Virus record (IMG/VR): IMGVR_UViG_648861009_000003
DNA length: 22,328 nucleotides
Source: a virus
Taxonomy: Duplodnaviria > Heunggongvirae > Uroviricota > Caudoviricetes
Strand: one strand, 5' to 3'
Below are positions 1 through 20,369 of this stretch, one piece after another. Numbering within the stretch: the first letter of the stretch is position 1; every line of letters begins with the position of its first letter. The notes beneath the pieces are model-generated. The model saw only the letters and a list, made by a program, of their open reading frames with translations, ran no database searches and was not told the origin of the DNA. The translations under genes were made by a program, and so were the position numbers.

Positions 1-1164
1 TTACGCCTTCTTTATATCCTCCATAATTCCAGAGTGGGACATATTTGGGACATTATCACCAAAAATGTCGTCTATTTTCCTCGCATGCTCTGTCAAATGA
101 TTAGGCGCAAGGTGAGCATACCTACGAACCATTTCTATGGACTCCCATCCGCCCATTTCCTGAAGCACTGATAATGGGACGCCTGACTGAATCAGCCAGC
201 TTGCCCAGGTGTGTCTGAGGTCATGGAAACGGAAATCTTCAATTCCTGCACGACGACAAGCTGATAGCCATGATGTCTTGCTGTCGATGCGCATCTTCCT
301 GACCGCAGGCGTTGATGTTCCATCTGCTCGCTTAGCCGCCTTGGTATGTACAAACACCCATTTGTGATGCTTGCCTATTTGATCACGCAACACTTTACAG
401 GCGGTATCGTTCAGCGCCACACCAATGGCGCGGTTTGATTTGCTCTCTTCTGGATTCACCCAGGCAACTCGTCGCTGCATGTCGATTTGTTGCCATTCCA
501 GATTTATGATGTTCGACTTTCTCAGACCAGTTGCCAGCGCAAACTTGACGACAGATTTCAGTGGTTCGGGGCACTCATCAATAAGGCGTTTTGCTTCCTC
601 CTTTTCCAGCCATCTGACTCGCTTGTTTCTGACCGCTGGTATCTTGATGACAGGCGCTTTTTCCAGCCACTTCCAGTCGCGTTCTGCAGCACGGAGAATG
701 GCCTTTATCATGGCAAGATGCTTTGCCTTTGTCTGAGTTGATACTGGCTTTGGTTCATAAACAGGCAGTTCTTTACCTTTCCTGATGGCGGCCTGAACTT
801 TCTGTTTCCATATTTCTTTCGTCTTTCTGTTATGCATTCTGCTTACAGCAGAGTAAATCTTTGCCTCCGAGATATCTTTAAGCCTTATACCCTCAAAATG
901 TTCAAGCCAGAACTCAATCCGGCTTTTATCTGAATCGAGAGATTTTTTATCAGCTTTTTCCTCAAGCCATCTTAGGCAGGCCTCTTCAAAAGTGACATCA
1001 GGTAAATCCCCTAGCTTTTCTACTCGCCAGAGTTCTGCTTTTCGCTTGTCGTGCAACTCCTGAGCTTGCCGCTTGTCCTTTGTGCCAAGAGATTCCTTAA
1101 TTCGTTTCCCGCCCGGGAGCGAATACGAGGCATACCATATTTCATTTCTGCGGAAGAGTGACAT
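1..1164 (-). CDS. int: Tyrosine-type site-specific integrase (DLP12 IntD-like)
   Basis: 387-aa ORF with C-terminal tyrosine-recombinase motifs ([11 protein letters not shown] ... VRRYAHL); N-terminus [21 protein letters not shown] resembles DLP12/P4-family integrases as I recall them. Stop codon is at window positions 1-3, so attL and the tRNA target lie outside the window to the left. Confidence 0.93.
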
Positions 1165-2489: not shown

Positions 2490-2650
2490 ACCGCCTCCCG
2501 TTTATTATTTATCTTCTCAGCCAGCCGCTGTGCTTTCAGGGGATTTCTGATAACAGAAAGGCCGGGAAATACCCAGCCTCGCTTTGTAATGGAGTAGACG
2601 AAAGTGATCGCGCCTACCCGGATATTATCGTGAGGATGCGTCATCGCCAT
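2462..2650 (-). CDS. Hypothetical protein (62 aa)
   Basis: Small ORF immediately downstream of exo on the same strand, overlapping the exo 3' end by 10 nt and the next ORF by 28 nt; uncertain. Confidence 0.3.
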
Positions 2651-3321
2651 TGCTCCCCAAATACAAAACCAATTTCAGCCAGTGCCTCGTCCATTTTTTC
2701 GATGAACTCCGGCACCATCTCGTCAAAACTCGCCATGTAATTTTCATCCCGCTCAACCACGACATAATGCAGGCCTTCACGCTTCATTCGTGGGTCATAG
2801 TTGGCAAAGTACCAGGCATCTTTTCGCGTCACCCACATGCTGTACTGCACCTGGGCCATGTAAGCCGACTTTATGGCCTCGAAACCACCGAGCCGGAATT
2901 TCATGAAATCCCGGGAGGTAAACGGGCATTTCAGTTCAAGGCCGTTGCCGTCACTGCATAAACCATCGGGAGAGCAGGCGGTGCGCATACTTTCGTCGCG
3001 ATAGATGATCGGGGATTCAGTAACATTCACGCCGGAAGTAAACTCAAACAGGGCTCTGGCGTCGTTCTCGTACTGTTTTCCCCAGGCCAGCGCCTTAGCA
3101 TTAACTTCCGGAGCCACACCGGTGCAAACCTCAGCCAGCAGGGTGTGGAAGTAGGACATTTTCATGTCAGGCCACTTCTTTCCTGAGCGGGGCTTTGCTA
3201 TCACGTTGTGAACTTCTGAAGCGGTGATGACGCCGAGCCGTAATTTGTGCCATGCATCATCCCCCTGTTCGACAGCTCTCACGTCGATCCCGGTACGCTG
3301 CAGGATAATGTCCGGTGTCAT
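2641..3321 (-). CDS. exo: Lambda exonuclease (Red alpha)
   Basis: 226-aa translation [50 protein letters not shown]... is near-identical to lambda Exo as I recall it; start overlaps the bet stop (ATGA). Confidence 0.96.
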
Positions 3322-4103
3322 GCTGCCACCTTCTGCTCAGTGGCTTTCTGTTTCAGGAATCCAAGAGCTTTCACTGCTTCGGCCTGTGTCAGTTCTGACG
3401 ATGCGCGAATGTCGCGGCGAAATATCTGGGAACAGAGCGGCAATAAGTCGTCATCCCATGTTTTATCCAGGGCGATCAGCAGAGTGTTAATCTCCTGCAT
3501 GGTTTCATCGTTAACCGGAGTGATGTCGCGTTCCGGCTGACGTTCTGCAGTGTATGCGGTATTTTCGACAATGCGCTCGGCTTCATCCTTGTCATAGATA
3601 CCAGCAAATCCGAAGGCCAGACGGGCACACTGAATCATGGCTTTATGACGTAACATCCGTTTGGGATGCGACTGCCACGGTCCGGTGATTTCTCTGCCTT
3701 CGCGGGTTTTGAATGGTTCGCGGCGGCATTCATCCATCCACTCGGTAACGCAGATCGGATGATTGCGGTCCTTGCGGTAAATCCGGCATGTGCAGGATTC
3801 ATTGTCCTGCTCAAAGTCCATACCATCAAACTGCTGGTTTTCATTGATGATGCGGGACCAGCCATCAACGCCCACCACCGGAACGATGCCATTCTGCTTA
3901 TCAGGAAAGGCGTAAATTTCTTTCGTCCATGGATTAAGGCCGTACTGGTTGGCAACGATCAGTAATGCGATGAACTGCGCATCGCTGGCATCACCTTTAA
4001 ATGCCGTCTGGCGAAGAGTGGTGATCAGTTCCTGTGGGTCGACAGAATCCATGCCGACACGTTCAGCCAGCTTCCCTGCCAGCGTTGCGAGTGCTGTACT
4101 CAT
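3318..4103 (-). CDS. bet: Recombination protein Bet (Red beta, single-strand annealing)
   Basis: 261-aa translation [66 protein letters not shown]... matches lambda Beta. Confidence 0.96.
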
Positions 4104-4108
4104 CCGTT

Positions 4109-4368
4109 TTATACCTCTGAATCAATATCAACCTGGTGGTGAGCAATGGTTTCAACCATGTACCGGATGTGTTCTGCCATGCGCTCCTGAAACTCAACAT
4201 CGTCATCAAACGCACGGGTAATGGCTTTTTTGCTGGCCCCGTGGCGTTGCAAATGATCGATGCATAGCGATTCAAACAGGTGCTGGGGCAGGCCTTTTTC
4301 CATGTCGTCTGCCAGTTCTGCCTCTTTCTCTTTCACGGGTCGATCTGCTGGTAGTGACGCGCCCAGCT
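4109..4368 (-). CDS. gam: gam, 3' portion (copy A) abutting the N-gap; 5' end corrupted by indels
   Basis: Translation ...[74 protein letters not shown] matches the lambda Gam C-terminus; the last ~40 nt before the gap carry extra bases relative to copy B. Confidence 0.75.
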
Positions 4369-4814
4369 NNNNNNNNNNNNNNNNNNNNNNNNNNNNNNNN
4401 NNNNNNNNNNNNNNNNNNNNNNNNNNNNNNNNNNNNNNNNNNNNNNNNNNNNNNNNNNNNNNNNNNNNNNNNNNNNNNNNNNNNNNNNNNNNNNNNNNNN
4501 NNNNNNNNNNNNNNNNNNNNNNNNNNNNNNNNNNNNNNNNNNNNNNNNNNNNNNNNNNNNNNNNNNNNNNNNNNNNNNNNNNNNNNNNNNNNNNNNNNNN
4601 NNNNNNNNNNNNNNNNNNNNNNNNNNNNNNNNNNNNNNNNNNNNNNNNNNNNNNNNNNNNNNNNNNNNNNNNNNNNNNNNNNNNNNNNNNNNNNNNNNNN
4701 NNNNNNNNNNNNNNNNNNNNNNNNNNNNNNNNNNNNNNNNNNNNNNNNNNNNNNNNNNNNNNNNNNNNNNNNNNNNNNNNNNNNNNNNNNNNNNNNNNNN
4801 NNNNNNNNNNNNNN
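4369..4814. other. Run of 446 N (assembly/scaffold gap)
   Basis: Contiguous N characters; both flanks are copies of the same gam sequence. Confidence 0.95.
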
Positions 4815-16383: not shown

Positions 16384-16878
16384 TGTTTGAGTTTAATATN
16401 NNNNNNNNNNNNNNNNNNNNNNNNNNNNNNNNNNNNNNNNNNNNNNNNNNNNNNNNNNNNNNNNNNNNNNNNNNNNNNNNNNNNNNNNNNNNNNNNNNNN
16501 NNNNNNNNNNNNNNNNNNNNNNNNNNNNNNNNNNNNNNNNNNNNNNNNNNNNNNNNNNNNNNNNNNNNNNNNNNNNNNNNNNNNNNNNNNNNNNNNNNNN
16601 NNNNNNNNNNNNNNNNNNNNNNNNNNNNNNNNNNNNNNNNNNNNNNNNNNNNNNNNNNNNNNNNNNNNNNNNNNNNNNNNNNNNNNNNNNNNNNNNNNNN
16701 NNNNNNNNNNNNNNNNNNNNNNNNNNNNNNNNNNNNNNNNNNNNNNNNNNNNNNNNNNNNAGAACTTCTTCGCCACCGCTGGGGGCGTCTGCGCTTATAT
16801 CGTTTCCCCGGCTCTGTTTTGACCGATTACCGAATACTGAAGAATTACGCCAAAACACTGACAGGAGCAGGAGTATGA
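16380..16878 (+). CDS. ylcG: ylcG-like small gene split by the N-gap (5' part 16380..16399, 3' part 16761..16878)
   Basis: The 5' flank encodes MMFEFN and the 3' flank encodes [38 protein letters not shown]; joined by about 3 nt they would reconstitute a 46-aa protein matching DLP12 YlcG as I recall it. Confidence 0.6.
16400..16760. other. Run of 361 N (assembly/scaffold gap)
   Basis: Contiguous N characters; the flanks are the two halves of ylcG. Confidence 0.95.
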
Positions 16879-16963: not shown

Positions 16964-17347
16964 ATGCGTGATATTCAGATGGTTCTTGAGCGTTGGGGAG
17001 CGTGGGCGGCTAATAATCATGAAGATGTGACCTGGTCGTCCATTGCCGCCGGTTTTAAGGGATTAATTCCTTCAAAAGTAAAATCTCGCCCGCAATGTTG
17101 TGACGATGACGCGATGATCATTTGCGGGTGCATGGCCCGTCTGAAAAAGAACAACAGCGATTTGCACGATTTATTAGTAGATTATTATGTAGTCGGTATG
17201 ACATTCATGTCACTGGCAGGTAAGCATTGCTGCTCTGATGGTTATATCGGGAAAAGGTTACAAAAGGCTGAGGGCATAATTGAAGGGATGTTAATGGCAT
17301 TAGATATCCGGTTAGAGATGGATATCGTTGTTAATAACTCTAATTAA
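16964..17347 (+). CDS. quuD: Late-gene antiterminator Q (QuuD/phage 82 type)
   Basis: [60 protein letters not shown]... matches DLP12 QuuD; GGAG SD upstream of the ATG at 16964. Confidence 0.9.
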
Positions 17348-17369
17348 TATGCCAATTGTTTACTAAAAA

Positions 17370-17525
17370 TTATTAAAAATGGGGCGTTGAGACGCCCCCA
17401 AAAATAAAGGGTAATATATAACAGAAGGTTTATATAGTTAGAAGCAAGGTTGTGCTTCTAAAGGAAGTGGCTTGAGGGAGCCACTTATATGTTGGGGAGG
17501 CAACGCCTCCCGCAACATATCTTTT
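17370..17525. promoter_or_regulatory. Cluster of four GC-rich hairpins between Q and the nmpC 3' end (candidate pR'/qut/tR' and/or nmpC terminators)
   Basis: ggggcgttgagacgcccc; agaagcaaggttgtgcttct; gtggcttgagggagccac; gggaggcaacgcctccc. Confidence 0.4.
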
Positions 17526-17536
17526 TCGTAATCAGA

Positions 17537-18619
17537 TTAGAACTGGTAAACCAGACCTACAGCAACGATGTCATCAGTATCAATACCAGCTGTTTTGGTA
17601 AACTTACTATCGTCAATTAAGTTGATTTTGTAATCAACAAAAGTGGACATGTTTTTATTAAAGTAGTAAGTAGCACCGACATCGACATACTTGACTAAGT
17701 CTCGGTCACCATGAACACCAAGGTCTTTACCTTTTGACTGAAGGTAAGCAACAGATGGGCGCAGACCGAAGTCAAACTGATATTGTGCTACTGCTTCAAA
17801 GTTTTGTGCTTTGTTTGCAATATGGTTATTACCAAAAACGGTCATATTCTGAGTTTCAGAATATGTGGTAGCCAGATAGATATTGTTCGCATCATATTTC
17901 AGGCCTGCAGCCCATACTTCCGCATTTTTGCCGGAGGCATTGAATTTGCTCTTACCATAGGCGACCTGACCGTCAGTGCGATCTGATTTAGCATAGGTTG
18001 CACCCACGCCGAATCCTTCATACTCATAAGTAGTGGAGAAACCGAAACCATCACCATTGGCTTCAGTTACGTCAGTGCGGTCATTTTTACCCTGATACTG
18101 AGCAGCAAAGTTCAGGCCATCGACCAGACCAAAGAAGTCGTTGTTACGATAAGTTGCAACACCAGTAGTGCGACCAGTCATGAACACATCTGTTTGGGTC
18201 CAGGTATCACCACCGAATTCTGGCAGGACGTCAGTCCACGCACCGATGTCGTATGCTACACCGTAGTTACGGCCGTAATCGATTGAGCCGTAATCACCAA
18301 ATTTCAGGCCTGCAAATGCAAGACGGGTTTTGTCTTTGGAAGAACCTTGAGATTCAGCGCGGTTGCCTTTGAATTCATATTCCCACTGACCGAAACCAGT
18401 CAGTTGATCGTTGATTTGGGTTTCACCTTTGAAGCCAAGACGGGCATAAGTAGTATCACCATCATCTGCATCATTAGAGGAGAAGTAGTGCTTAGCATTA
18501 ACTTTCCCGTACAGATCCAGCTTGTTACTGTCTTTATTATAAATTTCAGCTGCCTGAGCAGACATCGCCATCAGTACTGATGCAGCTACAGCAGAAATTG
18601 CCACTGTTAATTTTTTCAT
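17537..18619 (-). CDS. nmpC: Outer-membrane porin NmpC/Lc (OmpC/OmpF/PhoE family), prophage moron
   Basis: 360 aa with a signal peptide ([23 protein letters not shown]), AEIYNKD...LDLYGK start and C-terminal ...VAVGLVYQF, typical of general porins; located between Q and the lysis genes as in DLP12 and PA-2. Confidence 0.95.
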
Positions 18620-19047
18620 CGTGAGCCCTTTTTTTTGAACTATTATTAAAAAATGATGTCACTGCGCGATAAATATTCATCTAATCAATGTGATTATTTC
18701 AAGATGTAAGTTTTGGTTTCTCGTTTAATTTGTGAAGTAGATCTCTATTTTTATCTGAACTTTTTTCTATCGAATCCTATTCATGGCTCTTGGCTGAATA
18801 AAAATAAATCTATTAGCCAATTTATATTAATGGCTGTTATTTATAAGTGCTCTATAATTTGAAGGTTCAATTTAAATTGGCTAAAAATAACGCTGGAAAT
18901 TATTTGTTGGTTATTTGTTGAGATTTGCTTATGTATTTGTAGTGGTGTTTTCAATACTCGGTAGCATTCTCGCAAATATCATTTAGTGGTTTACGTACGT
19001 AAAAAATTGGTTATGCTGTTAAGAGTGGTTACTTCGTCACACAGCTT

Positions 19048-19078
19048 AAACCCGCCGTCGAGCGGGTTTTTCCATTTT
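19048..19078 (+). terminator. Rho-independent terminator upstream of the holin gene (candidate tR')
   Basis: aaacccgccgtcgagcgggtttttcc: stem cccgc/gcggg followed by a T-run, about 115 nt upstream of the holin start. Confidence 0.5.
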
Positions 19079-19192
19079 TTGAGTCTCGATATTAGCTGAT
19101 AACCCAATACCTGAGTTATTCACTGACTCCGAGTCTGTTACGTTTCGTAGTATTCCCTCAATTTACACCCGCTTTGTCTGCGAGGTGGGGTT

Positions 19193-19408
19193 ATGAAATC
19201 CATGGATAAGTTAACAACGGGTGTCGCCTATGGCACCTCAGCAGGTAGTGCCGGGTACTGGTTTTTACAGCTGCTCGATAAAGTCACGCCCTCACAGTGG
19301 GCAGCAATAGGTGTGCTGGGTAGCCTGGTATTTGGCCTGCTGACGTACCTGACAAACCTTTATTTCAAGATTAAAGAAGATAAGCGCAAGGCTGCGAGAG
19401 GTGAATAA
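19193..19408 (+). CDS. essD: Pinholin S21 type with dual start (antiholin from Met1, holin from Met4)
   Basis: [71 protein letters not shown] matches phage 21 S21 / DLP12 EssD. Confidence 0.95.
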
Positions 19409-19905
19409 TGCCTCCATCATTACGAAAAGCTGTTGCTGCTGCTATTGGTGGCGGGGCTATTGCTATAGCATCTGTGTTAATCACTGGCCCAAGTGGTAAC
19501 GATGGTCTGGAAGGTGTGAGACATAATCCTTACAAAGACATAGTTGGTGTATGGACTGTATGTTACGGGCATACAGGAAAAGACATCATTCCCGGTAAAA
19601 CGTATACCGAAGCAGAGTGCAAAGCCCTCCTGAATAAAGACCTTGCCACTGTCGCCAGACAAATTAACCGGTACATCAAAGTCGATATACCGGAAACAAC
19701 GCGCGGCGCTCTTTACTCGTTCGTCTACAACGTGGGTGCTGGCAATTTCAGAACATCGACGCTTCTTCGCAAAATAAACCAGGGTGATATTAAAGGCGCA
19801 TGTGATCAGCTACGGCGCTGGACATACGCTGGCGGTAATCAATGGAAAGGACTGATGACTCGCCGTGAGATTGAGCGTGAAGTCTGTTTGTGGGGGAAAC
19901 AATGA
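19408..19905 (+). CDS. rrrD: SAR endolysin (R21-type lysozyme)
   Basis: 165 aa; N-terminal Gly/Ala-rich signal-anchor-release segment [20 protein letters not shown] followed by a lysozyme domain; TAATG overlap with the holin. Confidence 0.95.
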
Positions 19906-20369
19906 GCAGAGTAACCGCGATTATCTCCGCTCTGGTTATCTGCATCATCGTCTGCCTGTCATGGGCTGTTAATCATTACCGTGATAATGCAATCGCCTAC
20001 AAAGAACAGCGCGATAACAAGGCCAGTGAACTGGAGAAGGCGAACGCCACCATTACTGACATGCAGCAGCGCCAGCGTGATGCTGATGCACTCGATGATA
20101 AATACACGAAGGAGTTAGCTGATGCGAAAGCTGAAAATGATGCTCTTCGGCGCAAGCTTGATAATGGTGGTCGGGTGCTCGTCAAAGGAAAATGCCCTGT
20201 GCCATCCTCAGCCGAAACCTCCAGCGCCTCCGGCATGGGCAATGATGCCACCGTCGAACTCTCTCCAGTTGCTGGACGAAACGTTCTCGGTATCCGGGAC
20301 GGAATTATCCGCGACCAAACAGCATTGAGAACGCTTCAGGAATACATCAGGACGCAATGCCTTCGATGA
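19902..20369 (+). CDS. rzpD: Spanin inner-membrane subunit Rz
   Basis: Start at [23 protein letters not shown] (N-terminal TM) followed by a coiled-coil; ATGA overlap with the endolysin stop. Confidence 0.9.
20122..20328 (+). CDS. rzoD: Spanin outer-membrane lipoprotein Rz1, embedded in Rz in the +1 frame
   Basis: [21 protein letters not shown] has a signal peptide and VVGC lipobox, followed by a proline-rich segment [11 protein letters not shown]; classic embedded Rz1 arrangement. Confidence 0.8.

Follow-up and report, generated by a model that had tools for sequence, protein, structure and literature searches.

Gene content of the Q-lysis region

The window, by which is meant the whole stretch of 22,328 nucleotides of viral DNA that was analysed, carries a Q antiterminator gene, a porin gene and a lysis cassette in succession. 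Q (16964..17347, plus strand) encodes a QuuD-type protein of 127 aa that matches PF06530 from end to end (1-118/118, E=8.5e-54) and also matches the Q21 structures 6p18/6jnx (E=7.6e-8), a full-length profile match and a homology to Q21 that place it in the Q21/Q933W family (10.1101/651190). Amino-acid identity to the Q proteins of Stx phages is 79-82% up to the residues RLEMD, after which the tails diverge; six residues follow in the window Q compared with 23 in that of VT2-Sakai, and the 933W-type C-terminal tail is missing. A phage-82-type Q was the initial assumption, and it was dropped, the Q of phage 82 (229 aa, X92588) being unrelated, with no similarity to the window Q in a BLASTP comparison (E=8.6). 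What phage 82 shares with the window is just that Q follows rusA and ylcG in the genome. Its qut features do not apply, and the comparison with the phage 82 qut suggested in the first-pass annotation is inapplicable, the correct comparators being phage 21 and 933W. The features of the 82-type pause (a -10-like element, GCC at +15-17, an AT-rich stretch and U at +25) had found a tempting candidate in TAATAT-GCC-AATTGTT-T at 17345..17361, and a search for the phage 82 pause pattern yielded nothing above chance; since the two Q proteins are unrelated the fit is irrelevant.

The lysis cassette (19193..20369, plus strand) consists of an S21-type holin (19193..19408; PF04971), a SAR-type lysozyme (19408..19905; PF00959) and Rz (19890..20369; PF03245), with an Rz1 lipoprotein ORF embedded in the last of these (20122..20328), and is ordered as in DLP12 essD-rrrD-rzpD/rzoD.

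Between Q and S, and antisense to them, there is indeed an intact NmpC/Lc porin moron, as had been noted from the sequence at the outset. The gene (17537..18619, minus strand, 360 aa) is covered from end to end by Porin_1 (PF00267; 1-337/337, E=1.9e-151), scores 521 bits with the NCBIfam OmpC-subfamily profile against a cut-off of 484, and matches OmpC structures from residue 24 to residue 360, which together describe the full-length 16-strand domain of a general enterobacterial porin of the OmpC/NmpC/Lc group. The 23-aa signal peptide (encoded by 18551..18619) does not differ from that annotated for PA-2 Lc, and the protein ends in ...VYQF, with the C-terminal aromatic residue looked for in outer-membrane assembly. 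Lc of PA-2 is 91% identical and slightly longer (365 aa as against 360 aa), the differences being clustered in three segments, and the porin of strain NMBU-W13E19 is identical to that of the window. In the alignment of module variants the variation clusters at 17564-17613, 17914-17963 and 18064-18113, and these three segments are probably surface loops. A position between Q and the lysis genes of a lambdoid prophage, an antisense orientation and high identity to Lc and NmpC are all as in the known prophage porins, and on sequence grounds the gene is a full-length, OmpC-like NmpC/Lc allele. Of 5426 complete E. coli genomes 2397 carry the module (at least 80% of the query), as do more than 30 lambdoid phages that have been sequenced.

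The closest well-known relative is the DLP12 (qsr') prophage of K-12, in which quuD-nmpC-ipeX-essD-rrrD-rzpD has the same gene order and orientation and about 93% identity across the module. The K-12 copy of the porin gene is indeed disrupted, as first stated: IS5B splits nmpC after codon 346, whereas the window copy is intact, and the porin loop regions differ. Intact prophage copies of nmpC in wild strains, including the homologous copies in CFT073 and AW1.7, are expressed as both mRNA and protein (PMC12890032), and it is plausible, by analogy, that the gene in the window encodes a functional lysogenic-conversion porin.

The segment between Q and nmpC

A cluster of hairpins on the Q side of the porin gene had been pointed out in the first-pass annotation, and it is real. 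The segment 17368..17536 folds into four strong hairpins and one weak A/U hairpin with an MFE of -63 kcal/mol, and the z score is -9.0 for the minus strand and -6.9 for the plus strand, none of 200 shuffles equalling the fold. A role as a qut or 6S-like region is a different matter, for the cluster coincides with a feature that had been missed, namely ipeX and the terminator of nmpC. The DLP12 ipeX is given as 167 nt, and the small regulatory RNA IpeX lowers OmpC and OmpF (PMC12197685; PMC5069750). In the window the 3'UTR of nmpC/lc (17375..17536, minus strand) extends untranslated for about 162 nt from the stop codon to an intrinsic terminator, and an alignment of ten module variants revealed zero differences from K-12 DLP12 over this region, which is also 100% identical to the sequence downstream of PA-2 lc. 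Homology and position thus identify the hairpin cluster as ipeX, the 3'UTR small RNA of nmpC/lc, and not as a qut or 6S-like region. The terminator itself (GGGGCGTCTCAACGCCCC followed by ATTTTT; 17375..17398, minus strand) was found by a terminator scan; its stem is invariant and only its loop varies among the variants. The stems of ipeX are also kept, the loops being variable, and compensatory base-pair covariation was absent among the six distinct variants, a test that is uninformative for ipeX because these sequences are too similar. An Rfam search of the ipeX segment gave no match, and Rfam otherwise returned just a sub-threshold Trp-leader match on the terminator.

These observations bear directly on the possibility that pR' and qut lie directly after Q, within 17330..17540, in which case transcripts would stop in the absence of Q at a hairpin on the plus strand, giving a 6S-like RNA, and would in its presence run antisense through nmpC to S. 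Such an arrangement has its precedents, pR' being found directly after Q in phage 21 and in the Stx phages, and the complement of the first ipeX hairpin does form a plus-strand hairpin at 17487..17520 (17487..17526 with the CTTTTT that follows; -21.3 kcal/mol, z=-5.45) some 180 nt past the Q stop, recalling the length of the lambda 6S RNA. A promoter scan, however, found no sigma-70-like promoter on the plus strand between Q and nmpC, and the segment, besides being the published ipeX/terminator region of nmpC, bears no similarity to any pR' of the Q family and occurs solely with the porin, as the ipeX flank of porin-bearing phages in 36 of 36 phage records. A single A-U to G.U change in ipeX hairpin 3, moreover, preserves pairing only in the minus-strand RNA. 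A late promoter at this position is therefore extremely improbable. The plus-strand hairpin, the T-run of which is cut to 4 in three variants, may instead act as a terminator for transcripts leaving Q and so have an insulating role. The sequence at 17413..17434 (TAATATATAACAG), which resembles sequence downstream of a related Q, was also considered as the relic of a Q-proximal pR' and rejected, since that relative, like phage ev087, has a TTTACAATCGTAAAAA promoter-like site well downstream of Q, beyond blc and ybgA.

A probable late promoter adjacent to S

The first-pass annotation left it ambiguous whether pR' follows Q or precedes S, and gave TTTACG-N16-TATGCT as an example of a possible site near S. 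The motif is present, although about 6 nt to the right of where it had been placed, and the ambiguity largely disappears when it is compared with Stx phages, as homology to their pR' and first terminator strongly favours the S-adjacent site. The -35 hexamer TTTACG (18990..18995), a 16-nt spacer and the -10 hexamer TATGCT (19012..19017) form a plus-strand element (18990..19017) that aligns, in VT2-Sakai, phi24B and Ss-VASD, to what is annotated as the 'putative late promoter'. The surrounding segment 18989..19071 is about 77-78% identical to the annotated pR', qut and first terminator that stand directly after Q in these same phages, and pairwise alignment of this segment with the Stx-phage pR' region gave E=3e-12. 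The likeness to Stx phages (933W, VT2-Sakai, phi24B, H-19B type) takes in the -35, the spacer, the -10, the block TAAGAGTGGTTAC and the first hairpin, but in those phages the promoter overlaps the end of Q, whereas here it is separated from the Q stop by 1.64 kb, with the porin cassette between. The late cassette is thus not immediately adjacent to Q, an adjacency that is typical rather than required for function.

The start of transcription can be predicted from the Stx phages, in which the spacing from pR' to tR' is 258 nt (PMC7547250); when this spacing is applied to the VT2-Sakai annotation, +1 would fall at about A19024. The initial transcribed region (19020..19047, plus strand) opens with the block TAAGAGTGGTTAC (19020..19032), which is conserved in the 933W-type and four other pR' variants and is a candidate for the segment in which Q is loaded at a sigma-dependent pause. 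It is followed, some 50 nt past the predicted start, by the rho-independent terminator that had been reported on the S side, which was recovered at 19048..19074 (plus strand) as a tR'-like hairpin AAACCCGC/GCGGGTTT with a T-run, the scan giving a stem of 19048..19069 and then TTTTTCCATTTTTT. The total of that scan (4 sites, with 2.2 expected) lacks significance by itself, but the hairpin is conserved and has homologues, matching the first terminator after pR' in Stx phages. The order is that of a typical late cassette: a sigma-70-type promoter, an intrinsic terminator no more than about 50 nt further on, and the late genes, S starting at 19193. The efficiency of the leader hairpin as a terminator is uncertain because the 258-nt pR' transcript of Stx phages is predicted to extend past the homologous first hairpin (PMC7547250). 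Within the Stx pR' region, similarity to the window is confined to the first 83 nt, and homologues of the second terminator and of StxS (the 3' 74 nt of the 258-nt transcript) are absent from the window.

It might be argued that this element is an inactive relic of a 933W-like late region, and that the lysis genes are reached only by read-through from the early-right operon or from host promoters. The hexamers are weak, with 8/12 matches and a score below the threshold of the promoter scan, the DLP12-type differs from 933W at three positions in the pause segment, and the stem of the leader terminator is broken by G19064T in half of the variants. Against this, the stretch 18990..19063 is invariant in the ten module variants, which are 91-96% identical overall and have about 30% variable columns in the flanks of the element, and plaque-forming or inducible phages with exactly this arrangement keep an intact, conserved Q gene. 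The element occurs as a single copy within the window, where it is the sole homologue of a Q21-family pR', and the cassette has been kept behind Q genes that are only 59-87% identical to that of the window. A relic is accordingly regarded as very unlikely, and the S-adjacent element as the probable late promoter.

Phage 21 has a Q of the same PF06530 family, the same layout of a promoter, a short leader and, at most some 50 nt on, a terminator (annotated at +2..+50) and the same S21/SAR-endolysin lysis genes, but pR'21 has no detectable DNA similarity to the window, and the direct repeat ATTGAGCA/AATGAGCA used by Q21 is absent, with no Q21-like direct repeat visible in the pR' spacer. The subfamily of the window Q has in its place an inverted repeat, TTTACGnnCGTAAA, seen in the window as the 14-bp palindrome TTTACGTACGTAAA (18990..19003), which overlaps the -35 and is a candidate Q-binding region. 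Neither the TTTACG(TA/AT)CGTAAA palindrome nor TAAGAGTGGTTAC matches the Q21 elements, and when the promoter sequence strings were sought in literature text nothing relevant was found.

The AT-rich region and a possible sigma-E-type promoter

The AT-rich region described upstream of nmpC was readily confirmed, GC being 27-33% over 18600..19000, and is best regarded as the control region of the porin gene (18620..18988). The CRP sites annotated in PA-2 map exactly onto it (18728..18748), and the S and R genes downstream are the same in PA-2, which carries the G19064T terminator variant together with a 16-nt insertion before S.

Published work on DLP12 is said to ascribe Q-stimulated transcription of essD to a sigma-E promoter, and Rueggeberg et al. 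reportedly found in 2015, for DLP12, in vitro transcription by E-sigmaE and a requirement of the -35 for the Q effect. The corresponding promoter, essDp (about 18637..18668), would lie some 350 nt upstream of the pR' element. An alternative view of the lysis genes is therefore that this sigma-E-type promoter (GAACTA, 16 nt, TCACT, start at about 18668) is the Q-responsive one, producing transcripts of about 380 nt that end at the 19048..19074 terminator unless this is overridden by Q, and that the pR' homologue is a relic or supplies the loading site only. The position of essDp can be deduced from PMC7918800, which clones '-121 to +650' and cites RpoE and a Q-type antiterminator as regulators of the operon: the forward primer is located at 18547..18566, and +1 accordingly falls near 18668. 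The sigma-E-like hexamers GAACTA (18637..18642) and TCACT (18659..18663), with their 16-nt spacer, occur on the plus strand exactly at this deduced position, the region is conserved (2-8% variable columns), and the Q of phage 82 can engage a polymerase paused far from its promoter if sigma-70 is available (PMC4914094). Yet '-121/+650' could equally mean -650/+121 relative to the start codon of essD, and the conservation of 18637..18668 is explained just as well by the overlapping 5' region of nmpC. The loading mechanism known for the Q21 family depends on sigma-70 pausing shortly after pR', and across contexts that lack nmpC it is the pR' cassette that travels with the Q subfamily and not the sigma-E hexamers. 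It is thus unlikely that essDp is the promoter on which Q acts, although it may provide a second input to the lysis genes in addition to pR' at 18990..19017. The strict sigma-E pattern GAACTT-N14-18-TCNAA was not found; the looser GAACTA/TCACT pair was noticed only after the published primer had been mapped.

Organisation and expression of the module

Taken as a whole, the locus is in all likelihood a standard Q - nmpC - lysis module of the DLP12/PA-2 type, with pR' just before S and the porin cassette between Q and pR'. The gene identities, homologies, conservation and RNA folds were established directly, and from the sequence we infer that transcription would start, and Q would be loaded, at the 18990..19074 element, which, like the ipeX region, shows no differences from K-12 DLP12. 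The nmpC/lc gene would then be a self-contained moron, with a promoter of its own in the AT-rich region directing leftward transcription, and its mRNA would end in a structured 3'UTR of about 160 nt, ipeX, at the intrinsic terminator 17398..17375, with IpeX expected to lower the host porins OmpC and OmpF. In the lysogen transcription from pR' would halt at the 19048..19074 hairpin, giving an RNA of about 50 nt; once made, Q would load onto RNA polymerase at pR' and allow it to continue past the hairpin to S, R, Rz and the remaining late genes. The porin cassette (about 17327..18988) would fill the junction between the Q core and pR', so that late transcription dependent on Q would not be expected to cross nmpC in the antisense direction.

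The arrangement of Q, nmpC/ipeX and the lysis genes is an ordinary one that has already been described, and the consequences for annotation are that the hairpin cluster is best labelled as ipeX together with the terminator of nmpC, and pR' is best put at 18990..19017, a position that corrects the natural assumption that a late promoter always abuts Q. An intact nmpC/ipeX can alter the porin composition of the outer membrane and with it the availability of phage receptors and the permeability to antibiotics, and such changes have been described before in lysogens of PA-2 and in wild strains of E. coli.

What is new, and only mildly so, is the repeated presence of accessory genes between Q and pR' where Q is of this subfamily. 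Among sampled viral contigs TTTACG(TA/AT)CGTAAAAA was found downstream of a Q21-family Q in 77 occurrences, of which 25 adjoin Q, 42 have a porin between and 10 have other genes of 0.8-1.07 kb in the same place; a further nine occurrences have a porin upstream and Q past the end of the locus. It is possible, although the idea is put forward tentatively and is more doubtful than not, that in the Q933W/QuuD subfamily the boundary of the Q core (...RLEMD) with pR' serves repeatedly as a slot for accessory genes, across which Q acts from up to 1.66 kb away, and that the dyad TTTACG(TA/AT)CGTAAA is the Q-binding element of the subfamily; as part of that same tentative reading, binding would be to an inverted repeat and not to a direct repeat of the kind used by Q21. 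Cargo at such a site would be outside the late operon and would be expressed independently during lysogeny. The inserts seen between Q and pR' comprise the porin with ipeX, an ORF6N protein, a DnaD_N-like protein and an Rce1/CPBP-like membrane protease.

An intact porin gene between Q and the lysis genes

The right-hand part of a lambdoid prophage early region is recognisable in the window (ybcN, ninE, ybcO, rusA, ylcG and the antiterminator gene Q, 16964..17347, plus strand), and after Q comes a minus-strand nmpC/lc-type ORF of 360 aa (17537..18619), with the lysis genes S, R and Rz/Rz1 to its right, from 19193. The Pfam general porin domain PF00267 covers this ORF over its full length (1-337/337, E=1.9e-151), the product passes the NCBIfam OmpC-subfamily cut-off, and the solved structures of OmpC, OmpK36 and OmpF align with it from residue 24 to the last residue. 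The annotated signal peptide of Lc from phage PA-2 corresponds exactly to residues 1-23, with 91% identity over the whole protein. The first-pass annotation had read an intact, antisense NmpC/Lc-type porin between Q and S, an AT-rich region upstream of it, and an insertion in the K-12 DLP12 copy, and all three points are borne out: GC content is 27-33% across 18600..19000, and in K-12 MG1655 the gene is split by IS5B, whereas the window copy is intact.

Variation among ten porin alleles clusters in three short segments, 17564..17613, 17914..17963 and 18064..18113 (approximately residues 336-352, 219-235 and 169-185, respectively), in which 39-55% of columns are variable, while variation is almost absent elsewhere in the gene and in the signal peptide. 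Judged from this pattern, the three segments are probably surface loops on which phages or antibodies exert diversifying selection. An intact prophage nmpC is strongly expressed as mRNA and protein in strain CFT073 at 37 degrees C, and in strain AW1.7 part of the heat resistance is due to NmpC (PMC12890032).

More than 30 sequenced lambdoid phages, among them ev207, 2G7b, the PhiR series, mEp332 and a 434B recombinant with an acquired DLP12 segment, share the Q-to-S segment at 93-96.5% identity, and of 5426 complete E. coli genomes 2397 contain at least 80% of it; in E. coli NMBU-W13E19 the module is 100% identical apart from an IS1 inside Q. The module is real but already well characterised (NmpC/Lc porin, ipeX, DLP12-type lysis cassette), and the only points that may perhaps lie outside the literature are the Q-pR' junction as a recurrent cargo slot and a conserved dyad at the -35 of the late promoter pR'.

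The hairpin cluster is ipeX

The four-hairpin cluster beside Q is real, as the fold of 17368..17536 (-63 kcal/mol; minus-strand z=-9.0, plus-strand z=-6.9) indicates, but it is no candidate late-promoter region; by its sequence it is ipeX, the already published small RNA from the nmpC/lc 3'UTR, and a part of the porin cassette. In 2006 Castillo-Keller et al. reportedly mapped ipeX to the stretch that separates the nmpC stop from its terminator, and are said to have found an identical sequence after lc in PA-2. The cluster fills exactly the interval from the nmpC stop codon (17537) to a minus-strand intrinsic terminator, GGGGCGTCTCAACGCCCC-ATTTTT, at 17398..17375. K-12 DLP12 shows no differences from the window in this segment in the ten-variant alignment, and the sequence downstream of lc in PA-2 is 100% identical. 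Because the ipeX flank is limited to porin-carrying records (36 of 36 in the phage collection), the segment is counted with the porin cassette rather than with Q. Among the variants stems are conserved and loops variable, and an A-U to G.U change at 17457 keeps pairing in the minus-strand RNA only; double compensatory changes in ipeX were absent from the aligned variants, which are too alike to reveal them. ipeX has been described as a 167-nt RNA of the cryptic prophage DLP12 (PMC12197685, PMC5069750).

The late promoter probably adjoins S

The first-pass annotation left pR' either right after Q or just before S. In the Q-nmpC interval a promoter scan found no plus-strand sigma-70-like promoter. 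The suggested TTTACG-N16-TATGCT promoter does lie before S, about 6 nt further right than first placed (18990..18995 and 19012..19017, plus strand, 16-nt spacer), and its hexamers are weak (8/12 matches). A sensitive similarity search with the nmpC-S intergenic region as query recovered porin-carrying phages and, in addition, about 280 Stx and related phages that match 18989..19071 alone, at 77-78% identity. In VT2-Sakai, phi24B and Ss-VASD the homologous stretch starts within the last codons of Q and is annotated as putative pR', Q-utilisation site and first rho-independent terminator. The promoters are collinear (TATGCT in the window versus TATCAT in the Stx phages, each 16 nt from TTTACG), and 3' of the -10 both have an identical TAAGAGTGGTTAC block and then a hairpin, AACCCGCC...GCGGGTTTTT. 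The terminator noted earlier on the S side was recovered by terminator scan and folding as a plus-strand stem at 19048..19069 followed by a T-run. The window contains a single copy of the element, and 18990..19063 is without any variation in ten module variants (91-96% identical overall), with about 30% variable columns in the neighbouring 50-nt bins. Stx homology and invariance thus speak for the site next to S, and on these comparative grounds it is strongly favoured that pR' adjoins S.

The Stx pR' is an experimentally studied late promoter with a predicted terminated transcript of 258 nt (PMC7547250), a length which in VT2-Sakai spans the stretch between a point 7 nt past the annotated -10 and the second annotated terminator; by analogy with this spacing, the start in the window is predicted near A19024. 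Since the predicted Stx transcript extends beyond the homologous first hairpin (PMC7547250), the strength of the putative leader terminator is uncertain. Phage 21, in an annotation derived from experiments, has directly after Q a -35, a Q-binding element, a -10, a start, a pause element and a terminator at +2..+50; a promoter, a short leader and a nearby terminator are common to both, and phage 21 is an apt comparator, as had been proposed. A Q21-like direct repeat is absent from the pR' region of the window, and no confident assignment of a sigma-dependent pause element could be made near pR'.

The annotated CRP sites of PA-2 map exactly onto 18728..18748 and 19024..19044. The second (AGTGGTTACTTCGTCACACAG in the 1986 lc record), some 405 nt from the porin start codon, coincides with the predicted initial transcribed region of pR', and it may belong to the late regulatory cassette rather than being an lc CRP site. 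A substitution in the 3' arm of the leader terminator, G19064T, occurs in four of ten aligned variants (ev207, ev099, CREC-2 and FWSEC0010) and in PA-2; it breaks the stem (-15.1 to -9.5 kcal/mol), leaving a weaker alternative hairpin before the T-run. The same variants, and PhiR68_2, carry a 16-nt insertion (CTGCTTTTTTGCGATA) before S at about 19146, and either or both changes may alter basal lysis-gene expression.

Q and its conserved partner

Q is not of the phage 82 type: the 229-aa Q of the phage 82 record (X92588) has no similarity to the 127-aa Q of the window, and the suggested comparison with phage 82 qut is inapplicable. The window Q matches PF06530 end to end, a family named Q21/Q933W by Yin et al. 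(10.1101/651190), and also matches the crystal and cryo-EM chains of Q21 (E=7.6e-8). Stx-phage Q proteins are 79-82% identical to it over residues 1-126 (tblastn) and, in pairwise alignment, collinear up to RLEMD, after which the C-terminal tails diverge. A core ending ...RLEMD is common to this Q subfamily and the tails beyond are unrelated (6 residues in the window, 23 in the 933W-type VT2-Sakai, a third short type in ev087-type phages); the mosaic boundary falls inside the end of the Q gene.

A scan of viral contigs for the motif TTTACGNNCGTAAAAA gave at least 122 occurrences at at least 120 loci. Among the matches listed, 86 of 122 were preceded on the same strand by a Q21-family Q, by the porin or by both: in 25 the motif directly followed Q at a distance of 13-70 nt, with Q 59-83% identical, in 42 the porin lay between Q and the motif (distance 1542-1660 nt), the porin lay upstream with Q past the locus end in nine, and in ten another insert of 0.8-1.07 kb, encoding an ORF6N-domain, a DnaD_N-like or an Rce1/CPBP-like membrane protein, separated Q from the motif. 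In all 86 linked matches listed the central NN is TA or AT, preserving a 14-bp palindrome (TTTACGnnCGTAAA), while the 36 listed without upstream Q or porin have 13 different central dinucleotides. Representative variants share the order palindrome, -10 TATnnT, TAAGAGTGGTTAC-like block, GC-rich hairpin and T-run. The scan shows the pR' cassette to be a conserved partner of this Q subfamily, with genes repeatedly lodged between the two.

In the window a perfect palindrome, TTTACGTACGTAAA, at 18990..19003 overlaps the pR' -35; 933W-type phages have TTTACGATCGTAAA, the centre being AT instead of TA with the dyad kept. The dyad is a candidate site at which Q, or some other dimeric protein, might bind. 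The phage ev087 locus (positions 2501..4790) and two E. coli chromosomes have a Q 88-89% identical to that of the window, then a plus-strand terminator, an antisense lipocalin gene (blc) and ybgA, with a promoter-like TTTACAATCGTAAAAACTTCAC-TATGAT about 1.9 kb downstream of Q that is accompanied by neither the TAAGAGTGGTTAC block nor any obvious hairpin. This layout may be another cargo arrangement at the Q-pR' junction.

Transcription across the module

On this reading the porin cassette (~17327..18988) lies between the Q core and pR', and Q-dependent late transcription would begin to the right of nmpC and not cross it. A plus-strand hairpin at 17487..17520 followed by CTTTTT (-21.3 kcal/mol, z=-5.45) probably ends unmodified transcripts leaving Q, and with the minus-strand terminator, which would end nmpC/ipeX, it would insulate the convergent genes. 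Antiterminated early-right transcripts could nevertheless cross nmpC during lytic growth.

Rueggeberg et al. (2013, 2015; cited in PMC7918800) reportedly observed stimulation of the lysis cassette by the DLP12 Q homologue and identified RpoE as the driver of a promoter termed essDp. A sigma-E-type essDp might be the sole Q-responsive promoter of the lysis genes. The site deduced for essDp does contain the sigma-E-like hexamers GAACTA (18637..18642) and TCACT (18659..18663), 16 nt apart. In PMC7918800, essDp was cloned as '-121 to +650' with a forward primer that maps to 18547..18566, a numbering that would put its +1 near 18668. Elsewhere, however, this Q family travels with the pR' cassette and not with sigma-E-like hexamers, and essDp as sole promoter is for that reason considered improbable. 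With pR' as the favoured Q-responsive promoter, essDp may be a second, host-wired input, also directed away from nmpC.

Other features of the window

A 361-base N run at 16400..16760 interrupts ylcG. In an intact ylcG the bases before (ATGATGTTTGAGTTTAATAT) and after (AGAACTTCTTCGC...) the run are only about 3 nt apart, to judge by the YlcG protein sequence and the rusA-to-Q spacing (581 nt in the window versus 223 nt in K-12 and NMBU-W13E19). The run thus conceals about 358 nt of inserted sequence within ylcG, or else an assembly gap there. The window opens with a minus-strand ORF of 387 aa (1..1164) and, since it appears to reach from one end of the prophage, across the early region, to where the packaging genes begin, a prophage integrase would be our guess. 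In a locus of E. coli Z1323CEC0004 an unannotated fragment (2501..2875) is 83% identical to 18579..18957, that is, the nmpC 5' end and the AT-rich upstream region; it is a decayed prophage remnant, and the same fragment adjoins ybcM, emrE and ybcL in genomes without the rest of DLP12.
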